Part shown: piece by piece, positions 20,333 to 51,826 of the stretch
How positions within the stretch are numbered: the stretch's first letter is position 1
How the letters are laid out: every line of letters starts with the position of its first letter
Assembly: GCA_010093995.1 (NCBI GenBank)
Contig: ML992516.1
Coordinates: 1 to 64,000, forward strand
DNA: 64,000 nt
Reading direction: 5' to 3'
From: Elsinoe ampelina
Taxonomy: Eukaryota
The notes under the pieces: model-generated
What the model saw: the letters and a program-made list of their open reading frames with translations, nothing else
Told to the model about the DNA's origin: nothing
The model's database searches: none
Translations under genes and position numbers: made by a program

Positions 20333-21094
20333 TGGTGGACTTGGGGGGAAGAGGTGGAAGGTCAGGAGGGAGTGGTGAAGTTGTAGAAATGCCGAAAGAG
20401 AAAACGGAGAGGCGCGGAGAACGACGGGACGATGCGGGGACCGTGGGCTGGCTGAGGTGCTTCCAAGCGGTGGCTCAAGAGGACAGTGTGTGGGGAAAGA
20501 GACATGAGATACGAAAGAGACGACAGTAATGAACCTTGTGGGACACGGGACCATGGAAGAAAAAAAAGAGACAGTGGTGAACAAGGCCAGGGCGTTGGGT
20601 AAGGGCGGTATATACCCGGGGTAATCTACGGCGTGTGCCTATTTTTCAAGCATATTTCTGCATCTTGTGCATGTCCCTCGGTGGTGGACTGAGGCCCATG
20701 GCGCTCTTGAGCCAGTGATGGCGGTCTAGATATATATGGTAGTGTATGCATGTCTCGTGTCATGGTCGCTGGCCGTGCAGCGTGTGAGTTCTGGTAGTAA
20801 CAGGCTCTGCTGGTAGTATCAGGATCCACTGGTAGTGTTTAGGCCCTCCTGGTGATATCATGCTTCGCCTGGTCTTGTCGTCGTCAGATCGTTCCGTCGT
20901 TTCGTGTGTTGTCCTTCCAGAGCTTTTATGAAAACAGCCAGACGCCTCGCTTCCAAGTGCAAGATTCCAAGTGCAAGATACAGCCAAAAACCTCGCTATG
21001 CGTCCAGAGTAGAAGCCATGAATCCAAATCAAGCGCCGCTGTAGGGTCCAGCCCCAGTGAAGCACGTGTCCCCCTTTGGCCTCAATCCGACCCT

Positions 21095-29641: not shown

Positions 29642-31288
29642 TCATGTGGTGCTGTTCAGTGCACTTCCATTCGCAGCCCTCGCACCGTTCTCGACCTCGT
29701 TCTCACTCAAGTCGCCTTCTTCTTGGTCATCAAGGTCCGGATCAACATCATCCACATCGTCGGCCTCAATCTCTGACCCGCTGTCTGCCTGCTCACCTCC
29801 CCCATTCTTGCCTTCATCCTTCAGCTGCCCGCCTTTCCTCTTTGGAATCACCTCCAAGAACGCCTTGCCCCAGTCCTCATACTCCAACCACTTGAGCATG
29901 ATCTCCACTACGTGATTCGTAGCAAGCACCTTCCGACTCGCCATCTGCAGATAGTCGCCGATAGGTAGCCGTGCAGTCTTGATGCCTGCTTCCTTTGCCC
30001 GCTTGTAGCAGATACCCTTCTCTCGGTTCTTGTCCACTAACCCGCCAATGATGTACGTGCTATACGGCTTGAGCTCCGTAAGCGTGTCTGGCGATTCGGA
30101 TGACAGATAGACTACCTCACCCTGCTCCTGCAGGCCCGGTTTGACCTCCTCCTCTCTCTTCCGTACAAGCTGCTTCCTCTTTGCTGCCGCCGACAGTTCT
30201 TTTTCGCCGCCACCTTGTCCATTCTTCTCAGCACCCTCCCTCGTCTCGCCTTCCTGCTTGCCCTCCCCCGTCTCACCTTCCTGCTCGCCCTCTCCTTTGT
30301 CACCACTCTGCCTCTCCCTCCCCTCATTCCTGTCCTTCTTCCCATCGCCCTCCTTCTCCTCCTTCTCCTTATCCTCCTTCTCCCTATCCTCCTTCTCCCT
30401 ATCCTCCTTCTCCCCATCCTCCTTCTCCCCATCCTCCTTCTCCCCATCCTCCTTCTCCCCATCCTCCTTCTCCCCATCCTCCTTCTCCCCATCCTCCTTC
30501 TCCCCATTCCCCTTCCCCATCAACCCCTCCAACCCAAGATACCGCTCAAACGGCCCCGCCAGCCTCCCCCCCTCATCCCCCTCCCCCATCCACCCCCTCG
30601 CCCTCTCCACCACCATCCCAAACCCCTCCTCCTCGAACCTCACCCCTCTCCAACCCCTATAATGCCCCCTCAACACCCCCTCAAACCTCTCCCTCAACCT
30701 GCCCCCCCACGACGAAACGACCAAATGCGCCCTCCACCTCGCATGCTTATTATCACTATACGCCCTCGTCACCTGCGCCCCCAAACTCGTCCTCTCCCCA
30801 TCACTCATCAGGTTATCGAAACTACAATCCACGACGATGGTCACGGGGAGCTGGACCGCGCGGGGGCGGTGCGAGCCTTTGTGCAGCGACATGGGGTCGA
30901 TGCCGGACGCGAGGAGAGCGGCGCGCTGGGTGCGTTTGGTTTCTTTGCGCCGGGCGATTTCTACCTTGCGTTTGAGGCGGCGGGTCGGGGCGGCGGCGTC
31001 CCATTCTTGTTGGCGCCGGAGTTTTTTGAGTTGGTTCTTTGAGAGGCCTGGGTTGGAGACGGCGAGGGCGCGGAGGGTGGGGTCTTTGAGGTTGGGGCGG
31101 AGGGATTCAAGGGTTGCTATGTCGGAGGGGGTGGAGGGGTCGTTGGCTGTGATGGTGGATGGGGGGTTTGCCACTGGTGGAGGGTTGGAGGAGACATTTT
31201 GGGTTGTCGGGGCTTCATCGACATCCAGAATTTTGTTCGAATCATGATCTAGCTTTCTGAGCTTGGTTGGGCGTTCGTCTGAGTCCAT
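29642..31288 (-). CDS. TRM10: tRNA (guanine-9-N1)-methyltransferase
   Basis: VVDCSFDNLM...SLGAQVTRAYS, VVYLSSES...YIIGGLVDKNREKG, TARLPI...RKVLATNHVVEIM...W..AF..VIPKRK. Confidence 0.9.
   Translation of the reverse strand: MDSDERPTKLRKLDHDSNKILDVDEAPTTQNVSSNPPPVANPPSTITANDPSTPSDIATLESLRPNLKDPTLRALAVSNPGLSKNQLKKLRRQQEWDAAAPTRRLKRKVEIARRKETKRTQRAALLASGIDPMSLHKGSHRPRAVQLPVTIVVDCSFDNLMSDGERTSLGAQVTRAYSDNKHARWRAHLVVSSWGGRLRERFEGVLRGHYRGWRGVRFEEEGFGMVVERARGWMGEGDEGGRLAGPFERYLGLEGLMGKGNGEKEDGEKEDGEKEDGEKEDGEKEDGEKEDGEKEDREKEDREKEDKEKEEKEGDGKKDRNEGRERQSGDKGEGEQEGETGEGKQEGETREGAEKNGQGGGEKELSAAAKRKQLVRKREEEVKPGLQEQGEVVYLSSESPDTLTELKPYSTYIIGGLVDKNREKGICYKRAKEAGIKTARLPIGDYLQMASRKVLATNHVVEIMLKWLEYEDWGKAFLEVIPKRKGGQLKDEGKNGGGEQADSGSEIEADDVDDVDPDLDDQEEGDLSENEVENGARAANGSALNSTT
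30357..30507. repeat. 15-bp coding minisatellite, about 10 units, encoding (G/R/K)EKED repeats in Trm10
   Basis: Repeated CCATCCTCCTTCTCC unit on the plus strand. Confidence 0.9.
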
Positions 31289-44244: not shown

Positions 44245-45027
44245 CTACCACCAGCTGTGCCCCTTGTCTATCTTCGCCAGTCGCTCCGCCCAGTACTGCC
44301 CCTCTTTCGCTCTCGCCGCCGCCACCTCCTTCGCCTGCTTCTTCGCGTCCTCTTGCCTACTCAACTCTGCCAGGTGTTCCGCCACCTGCTGTCTCATCAT
44401 CGCCCTCTCTTCTTGCCGCCGCCTCTTCGCCATCGTCTTCGCCCACTCCGGCTTGGACTTCCAGTCCACGTGTAATCTATGCATCTTGTCAGCCATGGTA
44501 TACAGTTACTACGCGTGCATGTAGCATCGATTAGTGCCCTGAAGCTAGCCGTACACCTCGCTGAGGTGTGTGTTGGTGTATGTTTGTGCCAACGTGATGT
44601 GCTAGCTCAAGTGCTCGAAGCTGGTGTGAGGGGAGGGGTAGATGAAGGAAATCTCGCGTCGAAAAATCGGTGGCAAGCCCTTTCGCAATGATTGCTACTC
44701 GTGTCAGGGGAATGAGTGGGAGAATTTGGCTTACACCATCCTGTTCAACAACCCTTGCTCCTCACCTGGCAAGGCCGCTGGCTGCTCAGGTGAGGGCGAA
44801 GGGGGCGTGATTTTGATCTCGGGGGCGACCGCCTCTTCCTTCTTCCAGGTGGGCGTGAGCCTCGCCAACGTCTCTGCTTCGTCCCAGATCACGTCGCCGA
44901 GGAAGGCCATGAGAGAGGACTCTTCCTCGTTGACGACCTGAGAGCTGGTCTTGACGCTGACGATCCAGCTGTCTTCTTCTTCTGCCTTCTCACTCGTCGC
45001 ACGGCTGTGGTAGTATGTGGTGCTCAT
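44245..45027 (-). CDS. Hypothetical or possibly degenerate gene (two protein-like ORFs; exon structure unresolved)
   Basis: ORFs 45027-44731 and 44496-44245 have protein-like composition and intron-like signals between them, but no clean in-frame join was found. Confidence 0.3.
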
Positions 45028-45300
45028 CTTGTCCTTGATGATTAGCTTTCCGATGAAGCGATTGAGCTGCTGCTGGTACTGCTATGTTGTTACCGTGTGT
45101 GATGTTGTATAGGGTGGCTCGCTGCTGGCTCACCTCCTGGCTCACCGCTACCCCTGACAAGCTACCCAGCGCGCAGGGAAGCCACTAGAAGCACTCTACG
45201 TCACCCCCAGCCTCTTCCACGGCAACCAGCTCGTCGCTAGGCACCCATTCTAGGTTTAGGGCGGCTGAATCAGCGGGACGCCTTACGTGATCTCGAGGGA

Positions 45301-45347
45301 CATATAAGCTGGCTTCCTCCCCCTTTCCTCCTTCTCTTTTCTTTCTC
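45301..45347 (+). promoter_or_regulatory. snRNA-type core promoter: CATATAA plus pyrimidine tract
   Basis: Same layout and spacing (46-48 nt to the +1 A) as at 48106 and 49208. Confidence 0.6.
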
Positions 45348-45540
45348 ATGACTACTAATGATTCGCTAGGCAATGCTCTGCTCTGCTGCGCTGCGCCTAG
45401 TATGGATCTATGGTTTCATGCTTGCACTCCTTGACCGGTTTGCAACCACTTTTTGGACCCAGGCTGGTGATCCCTGAGCTTGCTCACATCACTGGCCACA
45501 GTGTCGCTCGTATTGCACTTCCTCGAGCTGACGCAAACCC
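45348..45540 (+). ncRNA. U2-like variant snRNA (~193 nt): U2-type 3' domain, non-canonical 5' domain
   Basis: Sm-like ACUUUUUGG at nt ~101 (45448-45456). SLIII-like stem 45462-45497 with GAGCUUGCUC apex. SLIV-like stem 45501-45534 with UAUUGCAC loop. Promoter and 3' flank are shared with the U1 gene. Confidence 0.7.
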
Positions 45541-46369
45541 TTTTCATCATATCATGGCTCTACTGCTGTGCTTTGGAGAAGAGCCCTGTGCCTTTGTGAC
45601 TGTGAGACTGGCTGAGTATGGTGTCCTCATGTCGAAATGCTGCGTGTGTGATGTGGGCTTGTGAGGATGAGAAGCAGTGGTATCTACAGAGGCTCTTGGA
45701 GGACTGGCGGCGCGTGGTATATTCATGGTTTTCACGTAGAATCATTTATCAGGTGGGGCACGACAATTTCATGTCCTCAGATAGCACGCGAGATGATGTG
45801 GTGGTGCTGTGGGACGATAGGTGCTGAGCTGATGAGGCTCGAAACTGGTGCTGGCAGGGCTCAAGAGGCAGAGATGCCATAGATGTGATGAGCAGTCGGC
45901 GCAGCCACGGTGCTCGTATGGTCTCAAAGAGACTTTCAATGTATGGTATAGCCACTGATCCTCCTCTTCCGTGATCTTGAAGCTCTTCTGAGGCGTTGCC
46001 AATTTATGCGCTCGATCCGCCTGTTCCATCGTCGCGTGAAGCTGAAGCTGGACAGCTGGAGGAGGATCTTGCATGGCCGATTTTGACACCCACAAGCTCT
46101 GAATTGATGCGTATGATGATTCGAAAGAAGCGTAGAGGTCCATAGATCGTTAATTCGGTGATACGATGTGGATGCCATTCGTATCGCTAGCGTGTTCTCG
46201 AAATGTGTATTCTCGGCCCTTGTTTTGGTGACGCCTGACGCGGGCTGGTATGGCTTCTCCCAAAGCTTCGCAAACCTCACCACCAACACCCACGGCAAAA
46301 ATCAACCGACTACCACACCATCACCTCCCCTCGCATACCAACCTCTCCAACGACATATACAAGCTCAAG

Positions 46370-46992
46370 ATGCCATCAATGGCCTTCGAGCAAGCATTCG
46401 CGGCGTGGGAGAAGTCCTACGCAGAGCTCAGGGGGACGAGCGGTGGCGATCCCACCGACCATCCGGCGGTGAGGACGGAGACGAGGGAGGCATGGGAGAG
46501 GGGAGAGATGAGCAAGGAGGAGTTCACGGTGCTGTGCCTGGCAGAGATCCAGAGCCACACCGCATGGATCAGGGTAAGCAGTGTCCCATCACCTCTCACT
46601 TCACCTTCCCCTACACCAAGCGGCGTGTCAAGCTCAGGGCAAACATCAACATCTGCCCCTGACGCAAGCACTGCAGCTGGCAAACCACAAACACCTCCAA
46701 AAACCCCTTCACGTCGCACTACTGCTACCCCTGCACCACACCCTACTCTCTGCACCGCTGCTGTCGAGGCAAGATCCATACTAACTAGCTTCCGTAGAAG
46801 GTGATCAAGCCGTCGGTCGACGAGGAGGGGAGGTTGAAGGTGGAGGCGCTGGAGGCGACCTTGGGGAAGCAGTTGCGTGAGGAGAGGGCGATTGCGCATG
46901 GGCTTGGGTGGCGGGATGGGTATGCCACCGGGTACGAGGACGGCCTGCGCGCCGGTCAAGCGCAAGAGCGAGGGACACCTGGGGGGTCTTGA
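46370..46992 (+). CDS. Hypothetical small 2-exon protein with C-terminal GxxxGxxxG repeats
   Basis: Intron from 46574 (GTAAGC) to 46797 (CTAAC..TAG) joins two ORFs in frame. C-terminus GWRDGYATGYEDGLRAG. Confidence 0.55.
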
Positions 46993-47045
46993 TACGGGCG
47001 GCAGGAGGCAGATCTAGTGGGCGGCGGGCTGGCTGGAGGACGACT

Positions 47046-47450
47046 CTGGTAGTAATTTCGCGACCAGGAGGCGTTGAGCAAGCAGCATATCCGGTGGAGG
47101 GAACAGACATGGAAGCAGTCCTGGTAGTATCTTCGCGATAAGGAGGCGACGAGTAAGCAGTATACCTGGTGGCGATGGCACATATCGACAGGAGTCTGGT
47201 AGTACCTTTTGGAGCAGGAGTTATCAAAGTTGGCTGCGCGGTGGTGGCAAACTATGCACGAGACCTGGTAGTATCTTTGCGAGCATAACGCGATCATTGA
47301 GCCAGCCAAACTCGTTTCAGAGCAGTCCGTGAAACAGAATGGTAGTATCATTGCAAGCAGAACGCGTTCAAGATCCGATGACACTTCTGGTGTCGAAACA
47401 CAATGTCCGTGACTGGTAGTGCCCTTCTCACAGTGCGAATTGGCAACCAG
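47046..47450. repeat. Degenerate ~74-bp tandem repeat, 6 units, with a conserved (C/A)TGGTAGT core
   Basis: Cores at 47046, 47121, 47196, 47265, 47339 and 47413 (spacings 75, 75, 69, 74, 74). Confidence 0.75.
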
Positions 47451-48151
47451 AATACCGTGTGTGGCCAGTCACAGACATGCAAGACGGTGCTCAACTGATG
47501 TTTGCTGAGCGCTGAATGCTACCATGCAGTCTGAGAGAGCCTGCTGCTAGAGTGCTTGCCAAATGTTTGCTCATGATATGTTCCCGTCGCTGCTCTCACG
47601 TGTCTATTTGCTCCAGAGAGGCATACGCGCTTTGTCAATTGTTTGATCGCCTTAACAAGGGCGTGATAACGCGAGGACTGCACAGCTTCCAATGACAGCC
47701 ACACGAATAGAACTCCAGGCCCAGCGGACAATCATTGCACGGTATGAATCACTGTAAGACCTCCTGAGGCCTCAGATACACACGATGAACGCGTCGAATC
47801 GTGCTTCGAAACTCGAGGGTCGTCCACAAGTGCTCCAGTGATCTCACCACGGCCTATCCGCCTGTCGCAGTGATCTCGATGGCCCGATGCATCGTGATGC
47901 GGCTCTCCTCGGCTTGAGTCAGGGCCGGCTTCAAAGCCAATAGGGGGTCGCCAGGGGTCGCTTCCCGCGGCTATTAGCCTCCCCTCGCCGTCGCCAGCGA
48001 CGACCAGCCACCAGACACGTCACTGCCGCCCTCGGTAGGCTTCCATGGCCTTCTATTGAGGCTGCGCAGCGTCGTTGCAGTGCACCGTAGCCAAGCCTCG
48101 AGATGCATAAAAACGCGCTCCTCTTCCCTTTCTCTCCTTCTTTCTTTCTTC

Positions 48152-48303
48152 ATACTTACCTTGGAGAGTCAGTTCAGGATCATGAAGCTGGACTGGCTGC
48201 TTGGATTGGGCCTCATTGCACAGCGAGGTCTTGATTCAAGTATGAGCCATGGGAAACCATGTTTCTTCTCTATAATTTTTGATTTATCCCTCTTGGAGGG
48301 GTG
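48152..48303 (+). ncRNA. U1: U1 spliceosomal snRNA
   Basis: 5' AUACUUACCU, SL1 loop GAUCAUGAAG (U1-70K site), SL2 loop AUUGCAC (U1A site), SL3 CAUGG-GAAA-CCAUG, Sm site AUAAUUUUUG, and terminal hairpin CCCUC-UUG-GAGGG. Confidence 0.93.
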
Positions 48304-49255
48304 CTTTCATCATATCATGGCTTGATAGCTGTGCTTTGGAGAAGGTGTTCATGTCTTTGTGAAGTCATATGTGTATGGCGTCCTCATGTCAGGATAGTGT
48401 GTGTGGTACGTGACCTTGTGCCGTGCATGATGCCCTCACATCAAGACAGTATGAGTACGACGTGATCTTGTGCTGCATGCCTCCCTCGCTTTGAGTAGCA
48501 TAACAACATGACGTTGGTGCGCAAGCGACGAGGAGTAAAGTGTTGTGTGCCTCTCACTCCAAAAGCCATAACGTTGTGACGAGTCTACGCGCCCATGGAA
48601 GACATTGACAGACGCTCCCTCTCACTCCAGAGTACACGAAACCGCGACGACAAGGCCTTGCAATCACTCCACAGGGCATATATCCTTGTGATTCAAGCGT
48701 GTGTACAGCGTCCAGTGCAGGTTTTCTCACTCTTGAGGACATGAGATGGCGACGACAAAGGCTTCCTCACGCTCCACGAAGTACATGTCATCACGTCTCT
48801 TGTGTAGGTACAGACTTGGGCGCAGGCTTCCTCACACTCCAAGAGACGGACCTCGAGAATTTTGACGTGCGCTGGGTTGTTGTGTGCGGCCGTCCTCTCA
48901 CTTGGCGAAGCGATCGTAACGTGCGCCTCTCTCGGATCACAGTGCCAGTGACAAGCCTCCTTCAATCTTTACAGATGATCATGCTCATGAGCTGAGAGAC
49001 TGTTATGCAGTTCTTCACACGGCAGACGATGCCTCTAGCGCTCCATGGTATAGGCGCACGCTTCCGCGACCAGACCACTGATCCCAGGGCTCTGAGCTAT
49101 CATCGGCGATGGCCAGCCAATCTCCGACACGCCTTCCATGGCCTTCTGTGATGCCCATCGATGACGCGTGCCATTGATCCAGCAACCAGGGTTAGGGTTG
49201 CAAGGTGCATAAATACGCTGACCTGCCACCCTTCTTCCCTCTTTTCTTTCTTTCC

Positions 49256-49435
49256 ATACTGACCATTACGGGGCTAATTTAGTCTCGCATAGGTTGCCCT
49301 CGCGGGCTCCTCCCTGACCTGTGTCTGAGGCAAGGTCAAAAGGACAACCCGTAGGTTGTCCGGGTGCTAGGTCCCTACGGGAGGACCGGGCCCACTCCGA
49401 TGGGGGCGGGAATCTTTGGAACCCCTTTTGGGGTC
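49256..49435 (+). ncRNA. Candidate Sm-class structured small RNA (~180 nt) with U1-like 5' end AUACUGACC
   Basis: Promoter and 3' flank resemble those of U1. Several GC-rich hairpins (e.g. GGACAACC-CGUA-GGUUGUCC, 49342-49361). Sm-like AAUCUUUGG at 49411-49419 and terminal hairpin ACCCC-UUUU-GGGGU. Confidence 0.62.
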
Positions 49436-51826
49436 TTTCATCAGTCTCCATGGGCTTTACCTGTGGACTGGAGAAGGCTATTGCATCTTCCACAGCTTTC
49501 GAGTGATGTTGTTTGCCCTGGTTGAGTGAAACCTTGGCCGTGTGATGATTTGCCTTGACGCGTTTGCCAGTGTTTGTCACCCATATATGTCTCGTTGCCT
49601 TGTCAAAAGTGAGCGTGATGCCTGGTGAGCCCAGCCCATGCTTGCTTGCGGAGAGGTGTGGTGTGATTTCGCGCTCTGGTGAGGAAATCAAGTGACAGCA
49701 CGTTCAAGCTCATCACGCACTCCACGAAGCTCCGACGACGACGACAATCGGTTCCAAAGGATCGACAAGGCTCAGAGATTGTTCACCATGCTCTTATTCA
49801 TCTCGCAGAGCCGTCCTCAGGTTGTCATCGCCGCCGTCACAAAATTCACCTCCACTCGAAGGTCACCTCCATTTCCGCCACCGCCCGGTCACAAGCAGCA
49901 AGAGGGTATCATCACAAGGTGCGCCGGGCGGCAGCATCAAGATCTAGAGCGCTGGATACGCCTCCAGATGCAGTACACGACCAGGCGAGAAGCATACAAC
50001 ATTCTCATGATGCCGGTTGGGCCATGGACCAACTTGCTTGGGCTGGGCAGGACCAGGTATTTCGCCTCCCATTGAAGTAGATAGACACCCAATTGACTTG
50101 CTCCATGATAGACCTCGCCTCTAGTGCAGAGCTTAGCCAGCCTCAAACGCGCCCTCCTCCCATCCACACTTGCTCTCGAAACGGGGTGGCGACTTCTCCA
50201 CCATGCAGATCAGGACCGTGCGGCACATATTCGCCATCAAGGAGGACAGCGTATACACCAGCAGCTACCTAGAAGAGTACATGGGCAAAATGAAGAGCAA
50301 GGATCCGAGCAAGGCGTATGGCGACCCGGAGAGTCAAGCGGTATACATGAGCTTGGATATATCTGGTGCCATCGTGGTTGGGAACGTTCTGCACTTGGAG
50401 ATGAGCTTCTCCTGTGGCCAGAAAGCGTGCGATTTCCATCGGCATATTAAGAGACACCATTGCTCTGATCCTTTGATAAGTTGTACCAGATCGTTCTGTG
50501 CACCGCGTGTGGACGATACAGCCCTCTGGATACTTAAATCGCAGTTGTCGCGGTCATGCTTAAGAGCAGATCTGAGGAATGAGCGTCTTTGGCTATCAGC
50601 GTAGGACAGTCAGACACGTCACGAGGCGGTAGTATCGTCGGTGTGTCTGGCTCAACGGTTGCGTGTAGTCCTTGAAGGATACCCAATCGTTCGCACTGGT
50701 GGATGCAGTATCACAATTGGCGCGTATGATCTCACCATCAAGCCTGGCTCCCTTTGAGACCTGCCACACCCTATGTAGGCGAGTTGAGCATGTCTTTCGT
50801 CCGTACATATCATGCAGGCCTGACGTGACCTCGTGTACCGAAAATGACTCTCACCCATCCCTGAGAAAGCCCGGTTTGGCGTGTCTCGGTGCTGCTCTAC
50901 CCTCAGGCAAGCCTCTCAAAGCATATTCATGCGACACAATACTCCGTAGTATAGCCTGTCTGCCGCCCGCATGTTTGCAATCCAAAAGCGCACCATTGAT
51001 TGCCTTGGATGATATCGTGCCAATGATTGCCCTTGTTTCGGCACAATCGATCGCGTCTGGTGTGCGTGAGGACGACAATCCTCCCCATTGACATCAAGAC
51101 ACATTATGTATGAGTTCTATTGAGAGTGTTCTCAGGGCACTGGCACGTCTCAAGCTACACTGCAGCCCTTTTGGTGTCTCTGCCAGCTGGTTGCGGTGGG
51201 GTGCCAACACTTGGCTTGACGCCGCAAGTGAGGCGGCCAAAAATTGAAGCTTCGCTCCCTCAAATGGGTGGAGAAGCCTTTGATCCGGCACAGCATCAGC
51301 AATCTGCCTCCAGTCGACTCGAAGGATGGTGCAAAAGATGCGGCGTGATCCAGCGCATCTTTTGGCATACCACACAGAGCCAAAAACGCGATGCCGAAGG
51401 CGCTGGCGATGACTGTGCTCTTTCGAGGGCAAAAAGATGTTCTGGCCGCGGATCGAACTCCTCTGACGGACTTCTCAGGGAGTTGTACACTCGATGTCAT
51501 GGACTGTCAGACTATTGATGGTTAGCGCATGGTTCTACAATTTGACCGTCAGTCCACAGCAGCAGCCGCAGTGCTAGTATTTCACGGAGACGGACACGCA
51601 AGAAATGATTATGTACCTTTGGTCTCTGGCCCCCCAATCATCCCGGGGCCCAATGATGCCAAGTCCCACAGATCCAGTTTTGAAGTTTGAAGCTTTAGCA
51701 ACTCCCATAACAACCACATCACCACCACCATCTACCCATCACGACGACATCTCCGGCGCCCGATATCACTGCCGTTGAACGCATAAGATAATCCATCAGC
51801 TCAGATCAAGCTCGATTCGCCTCAAT

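Follow-up and report, generated by a model that had tools for sequence, protein, structure and literature searches.

To our knowledge, the set of Sm-class RNAs in fungi is thought to be nearly fixed and consists of the U1, U2, U4 and U5 small nuclear RNAs (snRNAs) together with the Sm site in telomerase RNA. An Sm core and snRNA-type biogenesis also serve jobs other than splicing catalysis, as in the U7 snRNA, the fungal telomerase RNA with its Sm site and the herpesvirus HSURs. In humans, the variant U1 snRNAs (vU1) are reported to come from extra snRNA-type genes with working signals which were formerly deemed pseudogenes and whose RNAs are processed and bound by Sm proteins (PMC3561869, PMC10870369). 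In our study, a stretch of 64,000 nucleotides from Elsinoe ampelina (contig ML992516.1, positions 1 to 64,000; hereafter the window) has been analysed, in which a U1 gene lies between two further snRNA-type units, L1 upstream and L3 downstream of it. The reading placed first, to which we give about an even chance, is that of an RNA polymerase II (Pol II) snRNA-type cluster in a Dikarya fungus, with U1 flanked by two divergent paralogous units that form non-canonical Sm particles. The human variants are the nearest precedent but are far less diverged: they reportedly carry point changes and keep the U1 architecture, whereas most or all of the parental body is gone from L1 and L3. In comparison with the non-spliceosomal Sm-class RNAs, no histone-type or telomere-template sequence was seen by eye in L1 or L3, and the sizes and layouts differ. 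In the literature searches made for this study, nothing turned up on a U2 paralogue of a fungus in which the 5' domain is replaced, on an orphan fungal Sm-class gene or on the 3' box described below.

As read between positions 45000 and 49800, all three units lie on the plus strand and carry one cassette made of a distal CTTCCAYGGC motif, a TATA-like CATAWAA box, a CT tract, a CA start and a 3' box, and this combination is unique to the three loci in the window. The TATA-like box is CATATAA at 45301 in L1, CATAAAA at 48106 in U1 and CATAAAT at 49208 in L3. From its C to the +1 A (45348, 48152 and 49256, respectively) there are 47, 46 and 48 nucleotides, with a CT-rich tract in between and a YCA start, and the proximal promoters, identified by reading and by a promoter profile, cover 45301..45347, 48106..48151 and 49208..49255. 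The bodies of about 155-200 nucleotides are directly followed by the 3' box, TTTCATCA..CATGG(G)CT..CTGTG..TGGAGAAG. A preliminary description of this region, made from the letters, had given these coordinates, the CATA(T/A)A boxes, the pyrimidine tract, the spacing of 46-48 nucleotides to the +1 A and the 3' box, and all of them were found in place. The distal motif had not been part of it, and was located by motif count as CTTCCACGGC at -134 of L1 (45214..45223) and as CTTCCATGGC at -112 of U1 (48040..48049, also by the promoter profile) and at -123 of L3 (49133..49142, within flank shared with the U1 gene). CTTCCAYGGC has four matches in the window, three of them at the loci, where 0.36 are expected. 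Moreover, the upstream flanks of U1 and L3 have further sequence in common (CCAGCCA..GACACG..CTTCCATGGCCTTCT), the flank homology of L3 with the U1 gene being the longer one.

The 3' box was placed by pattern count and by a 3' box profile at 45542..45581 in L1 (TTTCATCATATCATGGCT..CTGTGCTTTGGAGAAG), at 48305..48344 in U1 and at 49436..49476 in L3 (TTTCATCAGTCTCCATGGGCT..CTGTGGACTGGAGAAG). The pattern TTTCATCA-N2-8-CATGG occurs three times in the window, at 45542, 48305 and 49436 only, against an expectation of 0.03, and none of 100 shuffles had three or more; its distal part TGGAGAAG has nine window matches (3.56 expected), three of which are at the loci. Searches of the window with the 3' box profile (E 8e-12 to 5e-8, with the following match at E 1.2) and with the proximal promoter profile (E 5e-13 to 4e-11, with the following match at E 2.3) returned the three loci only; both profiles were built from these loci themselves, and the informative part is the absence of a fourth match. 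The 3' box is about 40 nucleotides long and probably begins at the mature 3' end.

The middle locus is, on its sequence and predicted fold, a bona fide and apparently working U1 gene (48152..48303). It matches the RF00003 model over positions 1-166 of 166 with 63.8 bits and E 1.2e-14, which is below the gathering score of 69.5. This shortfall looks lineage-wide, because two fungal U1 genes found in metagenomes score alike (60.9 and 60.0 bits). The 5' end AUACUUACCU, the stem-loop I loop GAUCAUGAAG of the AUCAxGAAG type, the stem-loop II loop CAUUGCAC of the AUUGCAC type, the Sm site AUAAUUUUUGA and the 3' hairpin were all recognised, and the predicted fold is a four-way junction (z score -3.43, with 0 of 200 shuffles as good). 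The U1 hallmarks attributed to this locus earlier are thus borne out by the full-length model match and the junction fold. At the gathering scores, the Rfam scan of the whole window gave no match, and at E up to 0.01 it gave U1 and the U2 part of L1 only; no tRNA gene was found in the window.

The two metagenomic loci were obtained by a scan with a U1 5' pattern and belong to a different fungus. Their bodies differ from the window U1 in most helices; a CT tract is present in both genes, and a CA start in one. In both, TTTTCATTGAATGAYCTGGCTTTACTGCTGGTCTTTGAAGAAGAG follows, and the box TGGCTTTACTGCTGGTCTTTGAAGAAGAG after TTTTCAT is plainly the same 3' box. Since the box follows the U1 genes of a different fungus, it can be taken as a signal and not as a leftover of duplication. 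The proposal that the cassette is the snRNA-gene promoter and 3'-end signal, already made in the preliminary description, is thereby supported, because the cassette flanks a bona fide U1 and a body that appears U2-derived, and a similar box follows the two metagenomic U1 genes. In view of these two genes, the signal can be regarded as lineage-wide. A metagenome scan with the strict 3' box gave no match. A relaxed form gave 19 matches in prokaryote genome contigs, all bacterial and all without an upstream TTTCAT or U-run, and these were rejected as chance. As a separate observation, the two metagenomic genes carry a doubled CTTAGTAAGC word about 80-105 nucleotides upstream of the start (L001 1895-1925; L002 2125-2155, minus strand), which is possibly a distal promoter element of that lineage, unlike the CTTCCATGGC of the window.

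In case of L1, the body falls into two parts. From 45426 on only, it matches the U2 model RF00004 with 43.7 bits and E 1.4e-6 (6.2e-8 in the small-region scan), which is under the gathering score of 46. The U2-like 3' domain (45426..45542) aligns to model positions 85-192 with base pairs preserved and two non-standard pairs, and holds the Sm site ACUUUUUGG, stem-loop III and stem-loop IV with the loop UAUUGCACUUCC. The Sm site fits the A-U(4-6)-G consensus and aligns to that of U2. L1 is therefore like U2 in the Sm site, in stem-loop III (GAGCUUGCUC loop region), in stem-loop IV with its UAUUGCAC loop, in the gene type and in the 3' end directly before the 3' box. On the other hand, the 5' end, stem-loop I, the U6 helices, GUAGUA and stem-loops IIa/b of U2 are all missing or unrecognisable in L1, which has instead a 72-nucleotide hairpin with a 13-nucleotide extra 5' end. 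This 5' domain of 78 nucleotides (45348..45425) corresponds to the part where the alignment skips U2 model positions 7-84, and nucleotides 1-72 are predicted to form a long imperfect hairpin. It contains UACUAAU at nucleotides 6-12 and UAGUAU at nucleotides 51-56, the latter within a predicted helix. The hallmark of U2 is the GUAGUA branch-site recognition sequence together with the U6-pairing 5' region. Because GUAGUA and the U6-pairing sequences are absent from its first 78 nucleotides, L1 would be unable to do the job of U2. The fold of L1 reached a z score of -3.43, with 0 of 200 shuffles as good. The best-supported account of this locus, judged from its alignment, is that L1 descends from U2, keeping the half that builds the core particle and having lost the half that does the work of U2. 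As for the polymerase, a run of five T terminates RNA polymerase III, and Pol II is argued for L1 because such a run lies within its Sm site and would terminate RNA polymerase III.

It was considered whether L1 and L3 are known spliceosomal RNAs which escape Rfam through their divergence or through introns, L1 being a working U2 (or U12) and L3 a U4, U5, U11 or U4atac. This is the least probable of the explanations weighed here, and we hold it to be very improbable. In its favour, U1 itself scores below the gathering score, so the models fit this lineage imperfectly, and one source cites work on introns in the snRNA genes of a basidiomycete yeast and itself reports U12 and U4atac candidates, though only doubtful ones, in rust fungi (PMC2396436). 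Against it, no U4, U5, U11, U12 or U4atac was returned for either locus when small regions (196 and 211 bases) were scanned with a limit of E 10. L1 is without GUAGUA and without any match to U2 positions 7-84, and an 18-nucleotide pattern of the U2 branch-site region, allowing up to 3 mismatches, has no match in the whole window. L3 lacks a U5 loop of the CUUUUAC type. Further, a canonical U2 would have to exist, because the intron of a neighbouring gene is ordinary (GUAAGC...UACUAAC...UAG). A minor spliceosome is not expected in this fungus, and a minor-spliceosome identity was rejected, there being no U11, U12 or U4atac match and, by eye, no AAGGA-type sequence. An intron-interrupted snRNA was rejected by eye as well, as L1 lacks the 5' exon sequence of U2 and L3 lacks a plausible set of 5' splice site, branch site and 3' splice site. 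Telomerase RNA was rejected by eye for want of a 1.5-repeat CCCTAA-type template.

The L3 body of about 183 nucleotides (49256..49438), which is present in a related species as well, is an orphan. Its 5' end AUACUGACC has 8 of the first 9 bases as in U1, an Sm-like site AAUCUUUGG lies at 49411-49419 and the terminal hairpin is CCCCUUUUGGGG. The predicted fold contains several hairpins, with one helix closing three of them; the Sm-like site is partly paired in the minimum-energy fold and free in the centroid fold. L3 is like U1 in the gene cassette, the extended upstream homology, the AUACU-ACC 5' end, the helix closing three hairpins, the Sm-like site and the terminal hairpin, whereas it has G for U at nucleotide 6 and extra hairpins and is without the U1-70K loop, the AUUGCAC loop and any sequence or model match. 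Neither U1-70K and U1A loops, nor a match to the U1 model, nor similarity to the neighbouring U1 was found in L3. Because of the flank homology and the 8 of 9 identical first bases, L3 probably arose from a duplicate of the U1 gene.

In another explanation, L3 and possibly L1 are not of the Sm class but are other Pol II non-coding RNAs (for example small nucleolar RNA-like, or a scaffold) placed on an snRNA promoter and terminator. The Sm-like site AAUCUUUGG of L3 is non-canonical and no Rfam family matches L3: scanned as 196 bases at E up to 10, it gave junk matches only (E 0.08 to 4.6). In yeasts, small nuclear and small nucleolar RNA genes have common Pol II termination pathways, which also counts for this explanation. 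It is opposed by the layout, as no C/D or H/ACA box arrangement was seen by eye in L1 or L3, a single-stranded U-rich site with a terminal hairpin by the 3' end is that of an snRNA, and the Sm site of L1 with its flanking stems aligns to the U2 model. We consider it improbable.

The term paralogous, as applied to the three units in the preliminary description, is valid for their flanks only and not for their bodies. In local alignments of the bodies, 270 of 300 shuffles reached or exceeded the real score for L1 with U1 and 261 of 300 for L3 with U1. For L1 with L3 the number was 16 of 300, the matched part being the Sm region. Among the three RNAs, neither mutual pairing nor similarity was found above shuffles. 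The claim that the two outer bodies match no canonical snRNA holds for L3 and fails for L1, for which the small-region scan gave an RF00004 match at E 6e-8 over the Sm site and stem-loops III and IV; likewise no full-length Rfam match was found for L1 or L3, while L1 has a partial match to U2. Of the two proposed affinities, the U2-like one applies to the 3' domain of L1 and not to its 5' domain. The U1-like one, for L3, is weak, with the 8 of 9 bases at the 5' end, the upstream flank homology and the predicted three-hairpin junction on its side, and the missing U1-70K and U1A loops and Rfam match on the other.

In a related species, represented by DNA contigs of run X9, L1, U1 and L3 occur in the same order. 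These contigs cover 45006-47368, 47712-48124, 48163-48483 and 49015-49792 at about 89-91% identity. The substitution analysis was made on the first 40 of 355 substitutions, all of them up to position 45620, and so concerns L1 only. The background of 11.2% was taken from 45621-47368 as (236-40)/1748, on the assumption that those 40 are all that lie before 45621. Against this background, the 10 substitutions among the 334 nucleotides of the L1 unit (45251-45584) are few (P 3e-8), with 3 in the 97 of the proximal promoter (45251-45347), 2 in the 120 of the U2-like half (45426-45545, P 8e-5) and none in the 39 of the 3' box (45546-45584). Within the L1 body, 6 of the 7 substitutions are at unpaired positions, which make up 40% of all positions, and the seventh changes U.G to U-A; the predicted fold remains unchanged. 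In the distal motif, a C>T change at 45220 gives the relative CTTCCATGGC, the form of U1 and L3. L3 of the relative has insertions of one nucleotide after 49295, one after 49401 and seven after 49420, all in loops or junctions, between helices. The contigs of the relative break at the 5' end of U1. A second contig matches U1 nucleotides 12-50 (48163-48201) and then diverges into a different stem-loop II that still has CATTGCAC, and U1 is therefore multi-copy in the relative, with at least two genes. Conservation was seen in this one close relative, and it is significant for the promoter, U2-like half and 3' box of L1 and not for its specific 5' half. Runs X4, X7 and X8 gave short low-depth contigs identical to the window, which span the neighbouring gene's intron, end where the U1 repeat begins to recur and leave out the three bodies.

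The same comparison bears on the explanation that L1 and L3 arose by duplication of U2 and U1 genes and are now decaying, pseudogene-like or only neutrally transcribed, in which gene conversion with multi-copy snRNA genes keeps the homologous parts alike and the unique parts drift. L1 is conserved exactly where it is homologous to snRNA genes (3/97, 2/120 and 0/39) and its unique 5' half is near the background, L3 shows three insertions in about 183 nucleotides between close relatives, and the multi-copy U1 of the relative means that partners for gene conversion exist. However, in both orphans the promoter and initiator, the Sm-type site, the terminal hairpin and the 3' box are all still complete and at the right distances. 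The 7 substitutions of L1 and the 3 insertions of L3 spare the predicted helices, the distal motif of L1 is shifted toward the consensus in the relative, and both bodies fold better than shuffles. In addition, the flanks of L3 are intact though its body has no detectable U1 homology that could guide conversion. Decay is accordingly not our preferred account, and we regard it as somewhat unlikely, though it has to be taken seriously.

In the preferred reading of a cluster with two non-canonical Sm-class units, all three units would use the snRNA signals of the lineage, namely the distal motif, the TATA-like box about 47 nucleotides before the CA start, the CT tract and the 3' box. L1 would be derived from U2, retaining the Sm site and stem-loops III and IV, the latter with its AUUGCAC loop of the U2B'' type, and L3 would be derived from a U1 duplicate, retaining the Sm-like site and terminal hairpin without the U1-70K and U1A loops. 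Both may be transcribed, receive their 3' ends by way of the common box and join with Sm proteins, and L1 in addition with U2A'/U2B''. Any action of theirs would be that of variant small nuclear ribonucleoproteins (snRNPs), as competitors or regulators and not as catalytic parts of the spliceosome.

A number of points weigh against this reading. The L1-specific 5' half has 5 substitutions in 78 nucleotides, which is not significantly low (P 0.12). For L3, conservation rests on synteny and the three indels, and the 7-nucleotide indel adjoining its Sm-like site points to loose constraint. This site has a C in the uridine run, which makes it non-canonical, and the fold of L3 is modest (z score -2.53, with 2 of 200 shuffles as good). 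That a canonical U2 is present elsewhere in the genome is an assumption. Homologues of L1 or L3 beyond the one close relative were not found in the metagenome scans, the prokaryote-contig scans or the metagenomic U1 stretches; the 4-kilobase stretches around the two metagenomic U1 genes held no second 3' box, no other Rfam match and no L1 or L3 look-alike. Finally, attention was drawn to the branch-site-like heptamers of the two RNAs only post hoc, and that of L3 differs from the 5' end of U1 by a single base.

These heptamers, UACUAAU in L1 and UACUGAC in L3, are within the first 12 nucleotides of both RNAs, and TACTRAY has 18 matches on both strands of the 64 kilobases. They lead to a more specific proposal, that L1 and L3 form the RNA cores of Sm particles which are specific to the lineage and have taken on a new function, L1 combining a U2-type core of Sm ring and U2A'/U2B'' with a new 5' domain. 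The 5' UACURAY could mimic a branch site, bind and titrate the U2 snRNP or the branch-point binding protein, thereby tuning splicing. We rate this proposal as distinctly unlikely; if true, it would add a type of snRNA for which there is no description from fungi.

The preferred reading, if true, shows that snRNA genes can be re-used or decay while the full gene signals persist, and makes L1 and L3 candidate regulatory snRNPs. Whether or not this reading is true, the distal motif, the start context and the 3' box of about 40 nucleotides define the snRNA signals of this lineage, and they can be used for listing its snRNA genes and for asking by what 3'-end machinery the box is recognised.

The neighbouring genes are eukaryotic and encode proteins with SPX, Sel1, CCCH and HAD_SAK_1 domains, and the SPX protein has its nearest Atlas clusters in Basidiomycota and Ascomycota. 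Between L1 and U1 lies a small two-exon gene (46372-46992) of about 130 codons with a 230-nucleotide intron of the form GTAAGC...TACTAAC...TAG. Just after it, at 47040-47430, there is an array of six CTGGTAGTA(T/A)C-type copies spaced by about 70 nucleotides, and a second array of four copies spaced by about 19 nucleotides is present at 20785-20850. The word CTGGTAGTA has 7 matches in the window against 0.18 expected, forms a period-75 array and resembles the branch-site-pairing GUAGUAUCU of U2; it may be a protein-binding element of a 3' untranslated region.

A degenerate repeat of about 52 nucleotides with a CCTCAYRTC / CCTCTCACTCCA core (family D15) is found downstream of the L1 and U1 3' boxes, at 45613-45663 and 48370-48900. 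The spacer that separates U1 from L3 is made up of about ten copies of it, and in the relative some stretches of this spacer are replaced. The repeat could be a termination or pausing element, or a simple satellite.

Telomere-repeat-like words were also seen, with GGGTTAGGGTT at -67 of L3 (49189-49199) and GGTTTAGGGCGG at -95 of L1 (45253-45264), and are absent upstream of U1. This type of motif recalls the Tbf1-type sites of yeast small nucleolar RNA promoters. As an enriched motif, GGGTTAGGG / GGTTTAGGG, the telomere-like words upstream of L3 and L1, was rejected, since its 15 matches in the window with one mismatch allowed do not clearly exceed the expected 8.3.

Elsewhere in the window, at 30284-30533, a CTCCTTCTCCCCATC repeat with a period of 15 nucleotides and at least 11 copies (families D1 and D5) lies within overlapping long open frames on both strands.

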